The notes beneath the pieces are model-generated. The model saw only the letters and a program-made list of their open reading frames with translations, was not told where the DNA came from and made no database searches. Source: Candidatus Porifericomitales bacterium (GTDB lineage Bacteria; Pseudomonadota; Gammaproteobacteria; CBDEFV01). Taken from it: a stretch of DNA of 64,000 nucleotides. The stretch covers positions 143,305 to 207,304 of the forward strand of contig CBDEFV010000007.1 in NCBI GenBank assembly GCA_965237735.1, in the 5' to 3' direction. Shown here one piece after another: positions 1,155 through 11,603 of the stretch. The stretch's first letter is position 1. Every line of letters begins with the position of its first letter. The translations under genes were made by a program, and so were the position numbers.

Positions 1155-1316
1155 GTTTTATCATGATGAAAGATTGTAGCGGGCGAAGGAGGTGGACTCG
1201 TGAATGACCACCCAAGACCTGCTCCAGTCCCCGCTAACCAAGAAACGACTATCGCTGACCGCCGATTTCGCAATCCTGCCTCCTCTCCCAAGCAATTATG
1301 GTTTCACGACTAATAA
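1155..1316 (+). promoter_or_regulatory. Conserved array leader (TTATCATGATGA box plus downstream GCAATCCTGCC..CAAGCAATT element)
   Basis: Contains gagttttatcatgatgaaag and gatttcgcaatcctgcctcctctcccaagcaatt. The same elements recur upstream of copies 3, 4, 5, 6, 7 and 10. Confidence 0.5.
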
Positions 1317-2426
1317 ATGAATAAACCACACCTGAACGACGACATCCACCAACTCAGGGGCATCCGGCTGAAGGGACTGAACAGAGACTTGGGCTACTTT
1401 TTAGGAGATTGCAAGGTGGAGCCAGCGCATCTGGAGGAGTGTTTTGATGCGGACACCCTGTTCTACGATATTTTCTTCGAACCAACCAACCAGCATCTGG
1501 TCGCCGTCGGCCCGCCTCTGGGCAATTTGCAGGTGGATTTACAGATAGATGTTAACGGAGAGCCAATCAAGATCAGCGTGGTTGAGCAGGCAGCCGAACA
1601 GTTGCATCTGGTGAGGGGGAAGGTGAGCCGGGTTACAAAACAAAACGACATTCGCATAAAGGCAAATGCACAGACGTGGGAGCTCAGCGTACCTGCAAAC
1701 AACAGCGGAACCGGGCACAGATTTACCCTGTGCACGATACAGAAAGACAACAGGGGGCATTGGATCAAAGACTGGATTGAGCATTATCGAAAAATCGGCG
1801 TCGATCGAGTGATCCTCTACGACAACAACAGCGAGAAGCTCCCCGATGTCGATGCCATTGTCATTCCCTGCCCCTACAAATACGGTCTCCATAAATATTT
1901 CAGTATTTATGAAGGACGGTTGTGGAAAACCGGTTTTCTGCAGAGAAGCCTGCTGACGATCTGCGGCTACAAGTACCGAAGCGGCCATCTGCTGAATTTT
2001 GATACTGACGAATTGTTGCAGGTCAAAAGCCTGCGGAAATTCGAAAAGCGTGAACTGATTTATTTTGATTCCTGTTTTGTAGAAACCAAAACAGACGGAA
2101 AGCTGCCCGAGAACTACTCATTCAGGCACTTTGTGTACAGAAATGCGCACCTGAAAAATGAAAGCCTTAAATTTATTATCAAGATGGACAGGCTGCTGTA
2201 CATCCCGCATTCGCACCGCGTAAGATTAATACCAAAGAAAAAATCCATCTCAAGAAGAATTGTTTTAGAGCTTCAGAGGATTCGAAAGAAATTGATGTCA
2301 AAAATAGTTCCTCAAAGCGGCGATATTTTTTATCACTACAAGGGAATAAATACCGGTTGGAAAGTGGATAGGTCCTCCTTTAATGAAGCCACGGAGGTGG
2401 TGAAACTCAAGGGTCCACAACTCTAA
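1317..2426 (+). CDS. GT92/DUF23-like glycosyltransferase-domain protein, array copy 2
   Basis: ATG start, 369 aa, N-terminal MN..D[ID]HQLRGIRLKGL motif. Shares the YDNNSE and FD[TI]DELL motifs with the other copies. Confidence 0.85.
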   Translation: MNKPHLNDDIHQLRGIRLKGLNRDLGYFLGDCKVEPAHLEECFDADTLFYDIFFEPTNQHLVAVGPPLGNLQVDLQIDVNGEPIKISVVEQAAEQLHLVRGKVSRVTKQNDIRIKANAQTWELSVPANNSGTGHRFTLCTIQKDNRGHWIKDWIEHYRKIGVDRVILYDNNSEKLPDVDAIVIPCPYKYGLHKYFSIYEGRLWKTGFLQRSLLTICGYKYRSGHLLNFDTDELLQVKSLRKFEKRELIYFDSCFVETKTDGKLPENYSFRHFVYRNAHLKNESLKFIIKMDRLLYIPHSHRVRLIPKKKSISRRIVLELQRIRKKLMSKIVPQSGDIFYHYKGINTGWKVDRSSFNEATEVVKLKGPQL

Positions 2427-2594
2427 GCTGCGATCCGGTGTTATCATAATGAAAGGCCGTAACGGACAAGCACGGGCCGACTCCTCAACAACCACTCAGA
2501 CTCCACTTTGGGCCCGGCTGGTCGCGGCCTGAAAAGTCTGGCTACTCTTTCAAACCCTGCCTTTCCTCTGCAATTAAGTAAAGTTCCCCGACCA
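2427..2594 (+). promoter_or_regulatory. Conserved array leader
   Basis: ggtgttatcataatgaaagg ... tttcaaaccctgcctttcctctgcaattaagtaaagttccccgaccaatgaacgaaaag. Confidence 0.5.
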
Positions 2595-3782
2595 ATGAAC
2601 GAAAAGAAGCTGGAAAATGGAACCCGCATGAACGATGATGTCCATCAACTCAGAGGCATCAAGCTGACATGGCTCAAGAGAGACCCGGGTTACTTTTTAG
2701 GGGATCTCAAGGTGGCGCCGGCCCACCTGGAGGAGTGCTTCGATGCGGACACCCTGTTCTACGACATCTTTTTCGAGCCGACCAACCGGTATCTGGTCGC
2801 TGTCGGCCCGCCCCTGGGCAATTTGCAGCTAGCTATACAGATATATGTAAACGGAGAGCCGGTCAAACTTAAAGTGATCAGGAAGGCGGCCAGATGGAAG
2901 CATCTGGTGAGGGGGAAGGTGAGCCGAATAGCAGAGAGAAATGACATCCTGGTCAAGGCGAATGGACACCGGTGGCAACTCAGCGTACCTGAAAACGACA
3001 GTGGAACCGGACACAAATTTACCCTGTGCGCCATACAGAAAGACAACAGGGAGCACTGGATAAAAGACTGGATCGAGCATTATCGAAAAATCGGAGTGGA
3101 CAGGGTGATTCTCTACGACAACAACAGCGAGAAATCCCCCGACGTCGATGCCATTGTCATCCCCTGCTCATACAACAAATACGGCCTCAGTAAATATTTC
3201 GGTACTTATGGGCGACAGGCGATGCTAGCCTGTTTTCTGCATACAAGTCTGCTGACGATCTGTTGCTACAAATACAGAAGCGGCCACCTTCTGAGTTTTG
3301 ATGTTGACGAACTGCTACAGGTCAAGAATCTGGAGAAATACAGGGGGCGTAAATTGGTCTATTTTGATTCCTGTTTTGTAGAAACCAAAACGGACGGGAA
3401 GCTGCCTCGGGATTACTCGTTCAGACACTTTGTATACAGAGCCAAGCGCAGGAGAAAGGAGGCCCCCAAATACATTGCCAGGATGGACACCATGCTGTGC
3501 TCACGAAGTCAGCACCGAGTGAAATTAAAGGGAAATTTCACCCCGAGAAGGCTGATTATTAAGATTAAGAGGATCTGGTCGTATCTGAAGTTCATACTTT
3601 CAAAGAAACTGACGTCCCCAATGGCTCCTCAGGGTGAAGACACTGCTTATCGCTACAGGGAAGTATATATGGGCGAAGATGTTTATTATCACTACAAGGG
3701 AATAAATACAGGCTGGAAAGAGGATCGACTCACTTTCGATGAAGCCACAGAGGTCGTCAAAATCAAGGATTTACATCTCTAA
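2595..3782 (+). CDS. GT92/DUF23-like glycosyltransferase-domain protein, array copy 3
   Basis: ORF track 2508..3782; the first in-frame ATG at 2595 (MNEKKLENGTRMNDDVHQLRG) is the likely start, with an alternative at 2628. Paralog core is conserved. Confidence 0.8.
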   Translation: MNEKKLENGTRMNDDVHQLRGIKLTWLKRDPGYFLGDLKVAPAHLEECFDADTLFYDIFFEPTNRYLVAVGPPLGNLQLAIQIYVNGEPVKLKVIRKAARWKHLVRGKVSRIAERNDILVKANGHRWQLSVPENDSGTGHKFTLCAIQKDNREHWIKDWIEHYRKIGVDRVILYDNNSEKSPDVDAIVIPCSYNKYGLSKYFGTYGRQAMLACFLHTSLLTICCYKYRSGHLLSFDVDELLQVKNLEKYRGRKLVYFDSCFVETKTDGKLPRDYSFRHFVYRAKRRRKEAPKYIARMDTMLCSRSQHRVKLKGNFTPRRLIIKIKRIWSYLKFILSKKLTSPMAPQGEDTAYRYREVYMGEDVYYHYKGINTGWKEDRLTFDEATEVVKIKDLHL

Positions 3783-10281: not shown

Positions 10282-10296
10282 GGGAATGAAGTTTGC

Positions 10297-11400
10297 ATGA
10301 ACGACGATGTCCATAAACTCAGGTGCGTCAGGCTGGAGGGACGCAGGAGAGACCCGCGTTACTTTTTAGGAGATCACCGGGTAGAGCAGGCTCATCTAGA
10401 GGAGTGCTTCGATGCCGATATCCTGTTCTACGACATTTTTTTCGAGCCGACCAATCGACACCTCGTTGCCGTCGGCCCGCCCCTCGGCGACTTGCAATTG
10501 GACATACAGATCTATGTAAACGGAACACCGGTTGAACTCAATATAATCAAGCGGGCGGCCAAACGGTTGCACCTGCTGAGGGGGGAGGTGAGCCGGATTG
10601 CAAAACAGAACGACATTCTCATCAAGGCGAACGGACAGAGGTGGGAACTCAGCATACCTGAAAACAACAGCGGAACCGGGCATAAATTTACCCTCTGCGC
10701 CATACAGAAAGACAACAGGGAGCATTGGATAAAGGACTGGATTGAGCATTACCGAAAAATCGGCGTTGACCGAGTGATCCTCTACGACAACGGCAGCGAA
10801 AAACTCCCCGGGGTCGACGCCATTGTCATCCCCTGCCCATACAAGTACGGCCTCCGTGTATACCGCCGTATTTATGGACGATGGACATCTAAAATTACTT
10901 TTCTGCAGACAAGTTTGCTGACGATCTGCAGCTACAAGTACCGAAGCGGCCACCTGCTGAATTTTGATATCGACGAGTTGCTGCAGGTCAAAAGCCTGGA
11001 GAAGTACAGGGAACGCAAAGTAATTTATTTCGATTCCCGCTTCATAGAAACCAAGGTAGACGGGGAAATGCCCGAAGACTACTCGTTCAGGCATTTTGCA
11101 TACAGAAACGCGCGGATAAGAAATACAGCCTATAAAACTATGGTCAGGATGGACGAGCTTCTGTATGCCCACAGCCCGCACCGCGCAGTACTGAAGGGAA
11201 ATTTCGTTCTGGGGAGAATCATCTTAAAACTTCGGAGGATCGGATTCTATCTGAAGGCCAGGCTTCCACAGAAACTGATGGAAAGAATAGCCCCTCAGGA
11301 CGAAGGCATCTTTTATCACTACAGGGGAATCAACACAGGTTGGAAATTCGACATATCCCCTTTTGACGAGACTACGAAAGTGGTGAAACTGAAGGATTGA
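10297..11400 (+). CDS. GT92/DUF23-like glycosyltransferase-domain protein, array copy 9
   Basis: ATG 10297 (MNDDVHKLRCV), 15 nt after copy 8. Has the variant YDNGSEKLPGVD. Confidence 0.85.
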   Translation: MNDDVHKLRCVRLEGRRRDPRYFLGDHRVEQAHLEECFDADILFYDIFFEPTNRHLVAVGPPLGDLQLDIQIYVNGTPVELNIIKRAAKRLHLLRGEVSRIAKQNDILIKANGQRWELSIPENNSGTGHKFTLCAIQKDNREHWIKDWIEHYRKIGVDRVILYDNGSEKLPGVDAIVIPCPYKYGLRVYRRIYGRWTSKITFLQTSLLTICSYKYRSGHLLNFDIDELLQVKSLEKYRERKVIYFDSRFIETKVDGEMPEDYSFRHFAYRNARIRNTAYKTMVRMDELLYAHSPHRAVLKGNFVLGRIILKLRRIGFYLKARLPQKLMERIAPQDEGIFYHYRGINTGWKFDISPFDETTKVVKLKD

Positions 11401-11603
11401 CGCCTATAGGCTGGGCTCGGGCTTTATCATGATGAGAGGTCATAACGGCCGACGAGCGGAGGCTCCTCTCTAGCCCCTCAAGCCTTGCTTTGGCCCCGGC
11501 TGAATGGGGATGGCTTGCCGCTGGCCGACCACACCAAGTCCCCTTTACTTTGCAACCCAGGCCCCCAACCAATGAAAAGAGCCCGACCGAGGATGCAACC
11601 CGC
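11401..11603 (+). promoter_or_regulatory. Conserved array leader
   Basis: gggctttatcatgatgagagg ... ctttgcaacccaggcccccaaccaatgaaaagagcc. Confidence 0.5.

Follow-up and report, generated by a model that had tools for sequence, protein, structure and literature searches.

A duplicated leader with a -10-type hexamer and start region in a tandem glycosyltransferase array of an uncultured gammaproteobacterium

Why should most genes of a tandem glycosyltransferase array be preceded by the same non-coding leader? The locus in question lies in a 64,000-nt stretch of DNA from a Candidatus Porifericomitales bacterium, which is referred to below as the window. The initial annotation had described a conserved cassette of ~200 nt and proposed a promoter plus 5'-UTR element, possibly a leader peptide or an RNA switch, or else a recombination site. 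Comparison of the leader copies leads us, on balance, to lean towards a per-gene promoter and translation start inherited by tandem duplication.

The array and its leaders

Positions 1..12725 of the window hold ten same-strand paralogues of ~370 aa each, related to GT92 and GT2_4, with pairwise identities of 62-75% for protein and 72-82% for DNA. The family is very narrow (53 proteins among 5.8 billion) and occurs as variable-copy arrays in a few uncultured Gammaproteobacteria, the number and order of the genes varying between strains. A HemN-like gene, unrelated to the array, precedes copy 1 and its leader. The family of one relative includes a sponge symbiont.

Spacer length, taken as the distance between the stop codon and the conserved VHxLRG codons, is 189, 213, 109, 232, 349, 219 and 215 nt for copies 2, 3, 4, 5, 6, 7 and 10, respectively. 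The seven spacers are mutually alignable and constitute a homologous leader of ~110-350 nt, in agreement with the leader-bearing genes first listed, to which copy 1 can be added, its leader being present just upstream of the window. Around 40 related leaders were found in syntenic arrays on other metagenomic contigs (loci L002 and so on). In the list below, the hexamers belong to box 1 (TTATCATGATGA), ATG1 is the start codon of the conserved start region, CCCC.A.CAATGAAAAG, and ATG2 is a second candidate start (GCATGAACGAC).

1..12725, + strand: GT92/GT2_4-like glycosyltransferase tandem array of ten genes; copy 1 starts ~90 nt 5' of the window
1154, 2426, 3782, 4962, 6331, 7763, 9089, 10281, 11400, 12725, + strand: stop-codon ends of copies 1-10
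1155..1316, + strand: leader before copy 2; TATCAT 1159-1164, gene start ATG 1317, ATG2 position mutated to CTG
2427..2594, + strand: leader before copy 3; TATCAT 2442-2447, ATG1 2595 in frame, ATG2 2628
3783..3891, + strand: truncated leader before copy 4, ~100 nt deleted; TATAAT 3798-3803, box ATG 3802 in the gene frame
4963..5140, + strand: leader before copy 5; TATCAT 4988-4993, ATG1 5141
6332..6630, + strand: long spacer before copy 6; TATAAT 6496-6501, ATG1 uORF 6631-6672 with its ATGA end on ATG2 (6669)
7764..7929, + strand: leader before copy 7; TATCAT 7788-7793, GTG-initiated uORF 7930-7974 with its ATGA end on ATG2 (7971)
9090..9102, + strand: 13-nt spacer before copy 8, leader deleted
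10282..10296, + strand: 15-nt spacer before copy 9, leader reduced to its last ~18 nt (GGGAATGAAGTTTGCATG)
11401..11571, + strand: leader before copy 10; TATCAT 11425-11430, ATG1 uORF 11572-11607 with its ATGA end on ATG2 (11604)
12726..12907, + strand: sequence 3' of the last copy; repeat-unit homology ends ~8 nt past the stop (TAAGCTGC)

Copies 8 and 9 had been reported to lack the leader and to follow the preceding gene closely, which is the case (13 and 15 nt past the stop), and copies 7, 8 and 9 are probably co-transcribed. The copy 5 leader is the best example of the pattern TTTGCAACCCTGCC...TTGCAATT...CCCCAAACA, and the copy 4 leader has neither ATG1 nor ATG2. As for the second element of the annotated cassette, copies 5 and 7 are preceded by clear versions and copies 2, 3 and 10 by diverged ones; most of it is deleted in the copy 6 spacer, and the copy 4 leader lacks it. 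The first ~160 nt of the copy 6 spacer are extra and by eye resemble the decayed 3' end of a gene.

The array genes owe their common upstream region to joint duplication of gene and spacer. The cassette had been said to be duplicated with each gene unit on its 5' side, and a leader is indeed found before copy 1 and absent after copy 10, where neither the window motif scan nor the sequence 12726..12907 gave a box 1. Strain variants keep the leader together with the gene that follows it, and the duplicated unit would extend from ~10-15 nt 5' of the hexamer to ~8 nt past the stop codon. The idea of a conserved cassette survives as far as homology is concerned and fails for the bulk of the sequence, which diverges faster than synonymous sites of neighbouring genes: leader identity within the array is 0.51-0.67, versus 0.56-0.79 at four-fold degenerate sites of adjacent genes. 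Indels in the leader are of many sizes, many of them not multiples of three, and copies 4, 8 and 9 and the relatives L002_7264 and L002_12530 have partly or wholly lost the leader and still have full-length ORFs. Both genes and leaders of locus L004 have undergone lineage-specific homogenisation. Most of the ~200-nt leader may be unconstrained and decaying via substitutions and indels, with two short segments kept. That the bulk drifts freely and only the hexamer and the start region are constant therefore points to a promoter and start region of the ordinary kind rather than to an RNA switch.

The -10-type hexamer and the start region

Box 1 is found at 1158, 2441, 4987, 6495, 7787 and 11424; a further copy, at 3797, has diverged more. 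At up to two mismatches the window contains 20 matches, versus 3.7 expected, and those with zero or one mismatch all lie in array spacers. Near-invariance, originally ascribed to the whole box, is a property of the hexamer TAT[C/A]AT, which is invariant in the seven leaders (starting at 1159, 2442, 3798, 4988, 6496, 7788 and 11425), and less so of the 17-mer as a whole. The distance from the upstream stop to the hexamer is 4-33 nt in most spacers and 164 nt before copy 6. All hexamers of the relatives read TAnnnT except one CATAAT; the variants seen are TATCAT, TATAAT, TATAGT, TATTAT, TATACT, TACAAT and CATAAT, with no change in the A at position 2 or the T at position 6, the most important positions of -10 elements. 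Across 27 diverged leaders from eight loci, five of the six hexamer columns are at least 90% conserved (permutation p = 0.002), and the remaining columns at this level are grouped at CCC..A.T..A around ATG1. In the window's array, box 1 ranks first among the conservation islands (p = 0.002-0.012) and shows no significant excess conservation against a four-fold-site null (p = 0.84).

The most conserved feature of the leader thus resembles a promoter -10 hexamer, in keeping with the promoter element originally proposed. All seven window leaders carry TATCAT or TATAAT, near the sigma-70 consensus TATAAT and with A and T at positions 2 and 6, and this putative -10 element is followed by a purine-rich GATGAAAG. 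The best TTGACA-like -35 match at 15-19 bp spacing averaged 2.69 of 6 versus 2.78 in shuffles, the TG of an extended -10 occurs in 5 of the 35 distinct leaders scored, and a generic promoter scan did not call the hexamer sites. From the hexamer we infer promoter activity and a transcription start, such that each gene would have its own transcript from an internal promoter; for full-length leaders the 5' UTR would span ~110-165 nt. As a -35 element is lacking, this promoter would be weak or activator-dependent; where the leader is deleted (copies 7-8-9), one promoter would serve a small operon.

The second kept segment would be an A-rich translation start without a Shine-Dalgarno sequence, with ATG1 as the ancestral start codon. 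ATG1 is either the actual start codon or the head of a uORF of 11-14 codons that ends as ATGA on ATG2. Copies 1 and 5 and many relatives have no other in-frame start; in copy 5 this is because the ATG2 position reads ACG. Leaders with a recognisable start and without ATG2 have ATG1 or a nearby ATG in frame in every case listed, and one relative, L010_4782, has no in-frame ATG whatever. In most other leaders the ATG1 uORF terminates in ATGA on ATG2, and the preference for this coupled frame, at roughly 9 versus 3 independent lineages, is not significant. The frames of ATG1 agree with the earlier statement that the second element is in frame in copies 3 and 5 and out of frame in copies 7 and 10. 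Indels may have shifted ATG1 out of frame, leading to use of ATG2, and the overlap of the uORF stop with ATG2 would couple translation of the two. A relic of a coding N-terminus, named at the outset as an outcome that would speak against a regulatory element, is in part what the 3' portion of the second element represents (ancestral start codon and N-terminal codons). Poly-G tracts of G6 to G17 occur in L002, L003, L005 and L010, between ATG1 and the conserved core and specifically in copies without ATG2, in low-coverage long-read assemblies that are prone to homopolymer errors; the leaders in the window contain no homopolymer or repeat tract.

Alternative readings of the leader

Box 1 might instead act in the RNA, as the initiation region of a short regulatory uORF (G-rich patch, UUUUAUC, AUG AUG AAA) at which ribosomes finishing the upstream gene re-initiate, the act of translation rather than the peptide modulating the next gene. 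An NTG codon stands right after the hexamer in nearly every leader, with ATG, GTG or TTG at codon 1 or 2, and leaders that have lost codon 1 (ATA) carry ATG, TTG or GTG at codon 2; many copies also have a GGG or GGAG patch 6-8 nt upstream. No terminator-like site was found in the spacers, making read-through mRNA plausible. Against this, the either/or pattern of start codons amounts to only two or three independent changes, the G of the first ATG is replaced in about a quarter of leaders, and invariance is confined to TA..T of the hexamer and does not extend to the start codon. The box uORFs range from 3 to about 60 codons, with no conserved stop position. The initial annotation was right that they differ in length (that of copy 2 encodes MMKDCSGRRRWTRE) and that the box ATG of copy 4 is fused in frame to the gene, and also in placing conservation at the nucleotide rather than the peptide level; uORF frame and length vary. 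Its leader peptide does not withstand the same variation, together with the copies that have no ATG and those fused to the gene. Selection on a uORF start and selection on a -10 element are not separable by sequence alone, and we regard the regulatory uORF as unlikely.

Slightly less likely still is that the leader is a functionless neutral remnant, its hexamer conserved only through the youth or relatedness of the copies or through gene conversion. The divergence of the leader beyond that of four-fold sites, the unexceptional standing of the box against the four-fold-site null, the intact ORFs of leader-less genes and the homogenisation in L004 would all be accommodated by such a reading. It accounts poorly for the five conserved columns in a row and for the hexamer's persistence in the leaders that have diverged furthest (L010-L012) and in those of first copies, where the surrounding bases are completely different. 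In addition, the chance that the best-conserved hexamer would match TATAAT at five or more of six positions is about 0.5% (19 of 4096 hexamers).

It is improbable that box 1 is an operator with a near-palindromic core (ATCATGAT), through which a DNA-binding regulator controls all array genes together. Copies 2, 5 and 7 contain a short palindrome (TTTTATCATG / CATGATGAAA), and within the window and the related loci the motif is array-specific. The palindrome is lost, however, in the TATAAT, TATCATAAT and TATCATATT variants while TAnnnT persists, no regulator gene adjoins the array in the neighbourhoods inspected (window and related loci), and in JGI metagenomes the only further occurrence of the motif was one chance match in coding DNA.

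A structured cis-regulatory RNA (riboswitch, attenuator or protein-binding 5' UTR), as suggested initially, is largely refuted and very improbable. The long interval from hexamer to ATG1, which spans ~110-165 nt where the leader is full-length, would leave room for one, single copies can form hairpins, some of which look compensatory around the box by eye, and the L004 leaders give more stable folds than shuffled sequences (z = -2.0 to -2.5). Yet a cmscan of window positions 1-14000 against Rfam 15 (E <= 1) gave no match, and z-scores for six window leaders ranged from -0.54 to +0.86, with predicted folds differing between copies. Pairing of the box flanks was equally unremarkable (mean z -0.31, and -0.5 on the other strand). 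The proposed check of the aligned leaders for covariation and structure supported neither: RNAalifold found no consensus pairs in 27 leaders, and the helices drawn by eye did no better than shuffles (paired cells 70.8% vs 69.7%; covariation score 0.177 vs 0.172). The leader also tolerates large deletions.

Least credible is a site-specific recombination site (cassette boundary, inversion or excision) that shuffles gene units: the box does lie within ~15 nt of the repeat-unit boundary, a XerC-family recombinase gene is located two genes upstream of the array and strains differ in copy number and order, but breakpoints between strains are located within ORFs, the box shows no consistent inverted-repeat architecture, all units have the same orientation, so that there is no sign of inversion, and in Gamma- and Betaproteobacteria the genes dapF-DUF484-xerC normally stand together as a housekeeping arrangement. 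At the one junction compared (L002 versus L003 and L005), the jump from mosaic identity to near-identity does not coincide with the box and occurs within the upstream ORF, ~150 nt before its stop, and identity is at least 0.95 from there through the leader and the next gene.

Known arrangements and biological meaning

The lpl cluster of Staphylococcus aureus likewise consists of same-orientation tandem paralogues, where the intergenic region is passed on together with the adjoining ends of its two flanking ORFs (3' of the upstream one, 5' of the downstream one), and rearrangements proceed via homologous recombination inside ORFs (Tsuru & Kobayashi 2008, PMC2568036). The array shows an evolutionary unit of this type at the junction described above, where three strains are near-identical from ~150 nt before the upstream stop; the genes here are glycosyltransferases rather than lipoprotein-like, and the phylum differs. 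Like an ordinary sigma-70 promoter with 5' UTR, the array has a conserved TAnnnT hexamer followed at 5-8 nt by a purine-rich stretch, the element is on the 5' side of each unit, and element-less genes follow the previous gene in an operon-like manner; unlike it, the array has no -35 hexamer, rarely has the extended -10 TG, and has a long predicted 5' UTR.

In Mycoplasma variable surface-protein families (M. bovis vsp, M. hyorhinis vlp), a near-identical upstream cassette (~98%) carrying promoter and start region precedes every gene, is associated with variable expression of surface-related products, and works through promoter poly-A tracts or site-specific inversions. Each array member with a leader is similarly preceded by the same non-coding cassette, whereas array leaders are only 51-67% identical and the window shows neither repeat tracts nor inversions. 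Phase-variable LOS/LPS glycosyltransferase genes with homopolymer tracts are known in Neisseria, Haemophilus and Campylobacter; the array shares with them the enzyme class and, in related loci, poly-G tracts, whose lengths come from error-prone assemblies, and differs in having no tract in the window.

On the best reading, the leader would be an instance of a known arrangement, an internal promoter-plus-start region duplicated with the genes. Spacer similarity in a tandem array is the expected product of gene-plus-spacer duplication and alone does not point to an RNA switch, and the present result mainly removes this false lead; what remains of use is a testable map of probable transcription and translation starts for each gene. 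As a speculative extension, to which we give little weight, the array may act as a contingency locus through which an uncultured gammaproteobacterium, itself probably host-associated, varies its surface glycans, with different cells expressing different enzyme subsets. Each paralogue would then combine a weak promoter with a two-start region (ATG1, a frameshift-prone segment and ATG2), and indels, along with poly-G slippage in related genomes, would switch it between full-length, uORF-coupled and off states. If dual starts and poly-G tracts do drive variable expression, the array would be a symbiont counterpart of the glycan phase variation of pathogens.

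The glycosyltransferase array, its neighbours and its relatives

Ten same-strand paralogues of ~370 aa each fill the window from 1 to 12725. They match the Pfam families Glyco_transf_92 and Glyco_tranf_2_4 weakly, above or near the curated cut-offs, and are pairwise 62–75% identical in protein and 72–82% in DNA, with ~63% identity at third codon positions. Copy 8 carries an internal tandem duplication of ~20 codons (about 9180–9290, ...MEQADLEECFDARASRGKTPSAMEQADLEECFDADTLF...). The G+C content of the array is 45–52%, compared to 61–70% directly downstream. In the window's own contig, fetched with an extra 10 kb upstream (L001), dapF, a DUF484 gene, an XerC-family gene and a HemN-like gene precede copy 1, which opens the array, and an RND efflux gene is the 3′ neighbour.

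Two RND transporter ORFs, both of 1068 aa, are found at 12908–16114 and 17590–20796, with an ORF the size of a membrane fusion protein between them (16314–17582). After the array, related contigs carry one full RND gene (L002, L005) or one full gene and a fragment (L004), and the first RND copy beside the array may be a local duplication. A second low-G+C island (24071–27324, 41–47%) holds a fragment of a GT6-family glycosyltransferase, a weak LicD-family match and a further ORF, and is more glycan-related DNA, probably acquired. The low-G+C region at 38724–52931 looks like a restriction or defence island, encoding two TPR-repeat proteins, a 1131-aa PLD/SNF2/helicase protein, a 1114-aa Eco57I-like N6-methyltransferase with a TaqI-type specificity domain, a 672-aa GNAT-containing protein and further ORFs.

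The glycosyltransferase family is very narrow: a search of 5.8 billion proteins yields just 53 at E ≤ 1e-3. Syntenic arrays of varying copy number, with several copies broken, are present in the related contigs L002–L005 and L010–L012, and these supplied ~40 leaders homologous to those of the window. Gene order and pseudogene content also differ among the related contigs, and the copies of L004 group together, suggesting amplification or gene conversion within that lineage. A distant five-copy array with ~50% protein identity occupies another chromosomal site (L006, 10001–16229) in a 2.08-Mb MAG of Candidatus Oxydemutatoraceae, a gammaproteobacterial family whose genus includes a sponge symbiont. 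In that array, too, the spacers are repeated, but they are AT-rich, ~100–145 nt long and unrelated to the window leader, and the box described below was not found in them. A leader common to both arrays was therefore rejected: the leader is specific to one lineage rather than a property of the gene family, and duplication of a spacer together with its gene occurred independently in the distant array.

Extent and decay of the repeated leader

The distances from the stop codon to the VHxLRG codons of the successive copies 2–10 are 189, 213, 109, 232, 349, 219, 25, 27 and 215 nt. The seven long spacers are mutually alignable with a mean column identity of 44%, and copy 1 is likewise preceded by a leader. 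After copy 10 no leader-like sequence was found, homology ending ~8 nt past the stop codon, and the cassette thus forms the 5′ side of each unit. The initial annotation was correct in stating that copies 8 and 9 lack the leader, that short upstream ORFs (uORFs) begin at the box, that this start is fused in frame to the gene in copy 4, and in its assignment of the frame of CAATGAAAAG in the individual copies.

The repeated, homologous leader was confirmed by alignment; its description as a conserved ~200-nt cassette is too strong. Within the window's array, pairwise leader identity is 0.51–0.67 over aligned columns, with 12–49 gapped columns per pair, compared to 0.56–0.79 at the four-fold degenerate sites of the adjacent genes, indicating that the bulk of the leader diverges at least as fast as synonymous sites. 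The leader is partly deleted before copy 4 and wholly deleted before copies 8 and 9, and several relatives have similar deletions while their genes stay full-length open reading frames. Tandem duplication and shared ancestry explain the 200-nt similarity, and selection is not needed to account for it. Long spacers of 340–367 nt carry extra sequence 5′ of the box (window 6332–6480, L002 8368–8560 and L005 2046–2250), the last ~40 nt of which look by eye like the end of a gene copy, with its C-terminal codons and stop (for example AAGGGCCAGGACAAGCCACAACCGAAGTGCG vs AAGGGTCCACAACTCTAAGCTGCG), suggesting decayed remnants of deleted copies.

A −10-like hexamer in the upstream box

The element near the 5′ end of the leader, box 1 (TTATCATGATGA), has 20 matches in the window with up to two mismatches, compared to 3.7 expected, and every match with 0 or 1 mismatch lies in an array spacer. 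In the window's array it is the top conservation island against the leader's own background (permutation p = 0.002–0.012). It is not an outlier against the four-fold-site null (p = 0.84), which is evidence against strong constraint. Aligning 27 diverged leaders from eight loci gave 186 columns, of which only 16 reach 90% conservation or more; the T-A-T-.-A-T of a hexamer within the box accounts for five of these (cluster permutation p = 0.002), and the others lie mostly around the start codon in the second element (CCC..A.T..A). Over all leaders, including those of first copies, the hexamer reads TATCAT, TATAAT, TATAGT, TATTAT, TATACT, TACAAT or CATAAT, with A at position 2 and T at position 6 invariant and the middle positions variable, as expected of a sigma-70 promoter −10 element. 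Purine-rich bases follow on its 3′ side (GATGAAAG, AGTGAAAA, GGCAAAAT).

A −35 element or an extended −10 was sought and rejected: the best −35 match at a spacing of 15–19 bp averages 2.69/6, compared to 2.78 in shuffles, and the extended −10 TG is rare among the leaders. A generic promoter scan did not report the hexamer sites. The duplication breakpoint lies only ~10–15 nt upstream of the hexamer, and internal copies may therefore have inherited the −10 element without the ancestral −35 region. The promoter plus 5′-UTR element proposed in the initial annotation is thus supported in part: a −10-like hexamer is present, and neither a −35 element nor a conserved fold accompanies it.

The foremost alternative is selection for a uORF start at the box, as nearly every leader retains some NTG as the first or second codon past the hexamer. 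The ORF that starts there spans anything between 3 and about 60 codons; in some copies it forms a fusion with the gene, and others have no ATG. A conserved peptide from the ATGATG uORF, the leader peptide of the initial annotation, was rejected on this inconstancy of length and frame. Leader indels are not multiples of three, and the leader is therefore not coding; an antisense small ORF was likewise rejected, the open stretches of the minus strand varying in frame and length. A Fur-box reading of the box, made by eye only, matches about 10–11 of 19 bases and was set aside. Outside the arrays, neither the window nor the 31 fetched loci contained a match to the box, and a 21-mer scan of JGI metagenomes returned a single match, which falls within coding sequence on an unrelated AT-rich contig.

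Start codons, RNA structure and exchange between units

As a motif, the second element (TTGCAACCCTGCC) stands out far less than box 1 (31 matches with up to three mismatches, compared to 22.6 expected), but the alignment still shows it before copies 2, 3, 5, 7 and 10. The start codon in its 3′ part, ATG1 (CAATGAAAAG), is the sole in-frame start of copies 1 and 5 and of many relatives without the second start further 3′, ATG2 (GCATGAACGAC). Every listed leader that has a recognizable start but lacks ATG2 keeps ATG1 or a nearby ATG in frame; the related leader L010_4782 has no in-frame ATG. Where ATG2 is present, some copies (copy 3, for example) keep ATG1 in frame, but more often it heads a short uORF stopping at the TGA of an ATGA on ATG2. 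Such uORFs in the window are:

6631–6672, uORF from the ATG1 position ending on ATG2
7930–7974, uORF from the ATG1 position ending on ATG2
11572–11607, uORF from the ATG1 position ending on ATG2

These frame relations indicate that the 3′ half of the second element is the ancestral translation start together with an N-terminal segment that tolerates frameshifts. Many relatives have lost the upstream half (TTGCAACCCTGCC...TTGCAATT) and still have full-length ORFs, and it is therefore dispensable. The possibility that the element is a relic of an ancestral coding N-terminus accordingly holds in part, for the 3′ half. A sigma-54 (−24/−12) reading of CTGCC..TTGCA, made by eye only, was set aside, the −24 GG being missing and the CTGCC..TTGCAATT segment being deleted in many relatives with full-length ORFs.

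Poly-G tracts (G6, G10AG7, G17) separate ATG1 from the conserved core and are specific to copies without the second start codon; their lengths were read from low-coverage long-read assemblies and could be wrong. None was found in the window. A poly-G tract between start codon and core is a classic layout of phase-variable genes. The tracts are located as follows:

L002, about 3630–3660, poly-G tract
L010, about 4730–4750, poly-G tract
Leaders L002_6011, L002_11311, L003_7248, L003_11317, L005_942, L005_4729 and L005_7338, poly-G tract

The RNA switch or structured 5′-UTR suggested earlier found no support. Rfam gave no matches at E ≤ 1, six window leaders have folding z-scores of −0.54 to +0.86 against dinucleotide shuffles with differing predicted folds, and of the relatives' leaders folded as a comparison, the L004 copy alone reaches z = −2.0. 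For a consensus fold of the whole leader, RNAalifold predicts zero pairs on the 27-leader alignment. Helices picked by eye (GGCGG..CCGCC and CAGCG..CGCTG) are no better than shuffled partners, with 70.8% paired cells compared to 69.7% and a covariation score of 0.177 compared to 0.172. A hairpin enclosing box 1, with complementary arms read by eye in several leaders as CGCTTG/CAAGCG, CGCCCG/CGGGCG and GTTGCGATT/GATTGTAGC, is out of register between leader types, and box-flank duplex energies are no better than those of dinucleotide shuffles (mean z −0.31 on the plus and −0.5 on the minus strand). We conclude that the leader has no conserved RNA fold.

A role as a recombination site is not borne out either. 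L002, L003 and L005 are strain variants of one sample with the same units in differing order. At one junction, near-identity (≥0.95) starts within the upstream gene, ~150 nt ahead of its stop codon, and runs on through the leader and the downstream gene, with a mosaic further upstream, placing the crossover within the ORF and away from the box. The situation resembles the lpl cluster of S. aureus, for which crossover inside the ORF has been described (PMC2568036). The window leaders contain few inverted repeats, with no consistency among them. Sliding identity of L002 6230–6950 against L003 and L005 alternates within genes between blocks of 0.70–0.80 and 0.93–1.0, a mosaic that suggests repeated homologous exchange between paralogues.

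The glycosyltransferase array is unusual in its own right, and its repeated leader is a 5′ flank that was duplicated along with each gene unit. The flank holds what is probably a −10-only promoter, together with the ancestral start-codon region, and the ~110–165 nt between the hexamer and the start region of full-length leaders are drifting, without a conserved fold. Promoter activity at the hexamer and coupling of the uORFs are predicted.
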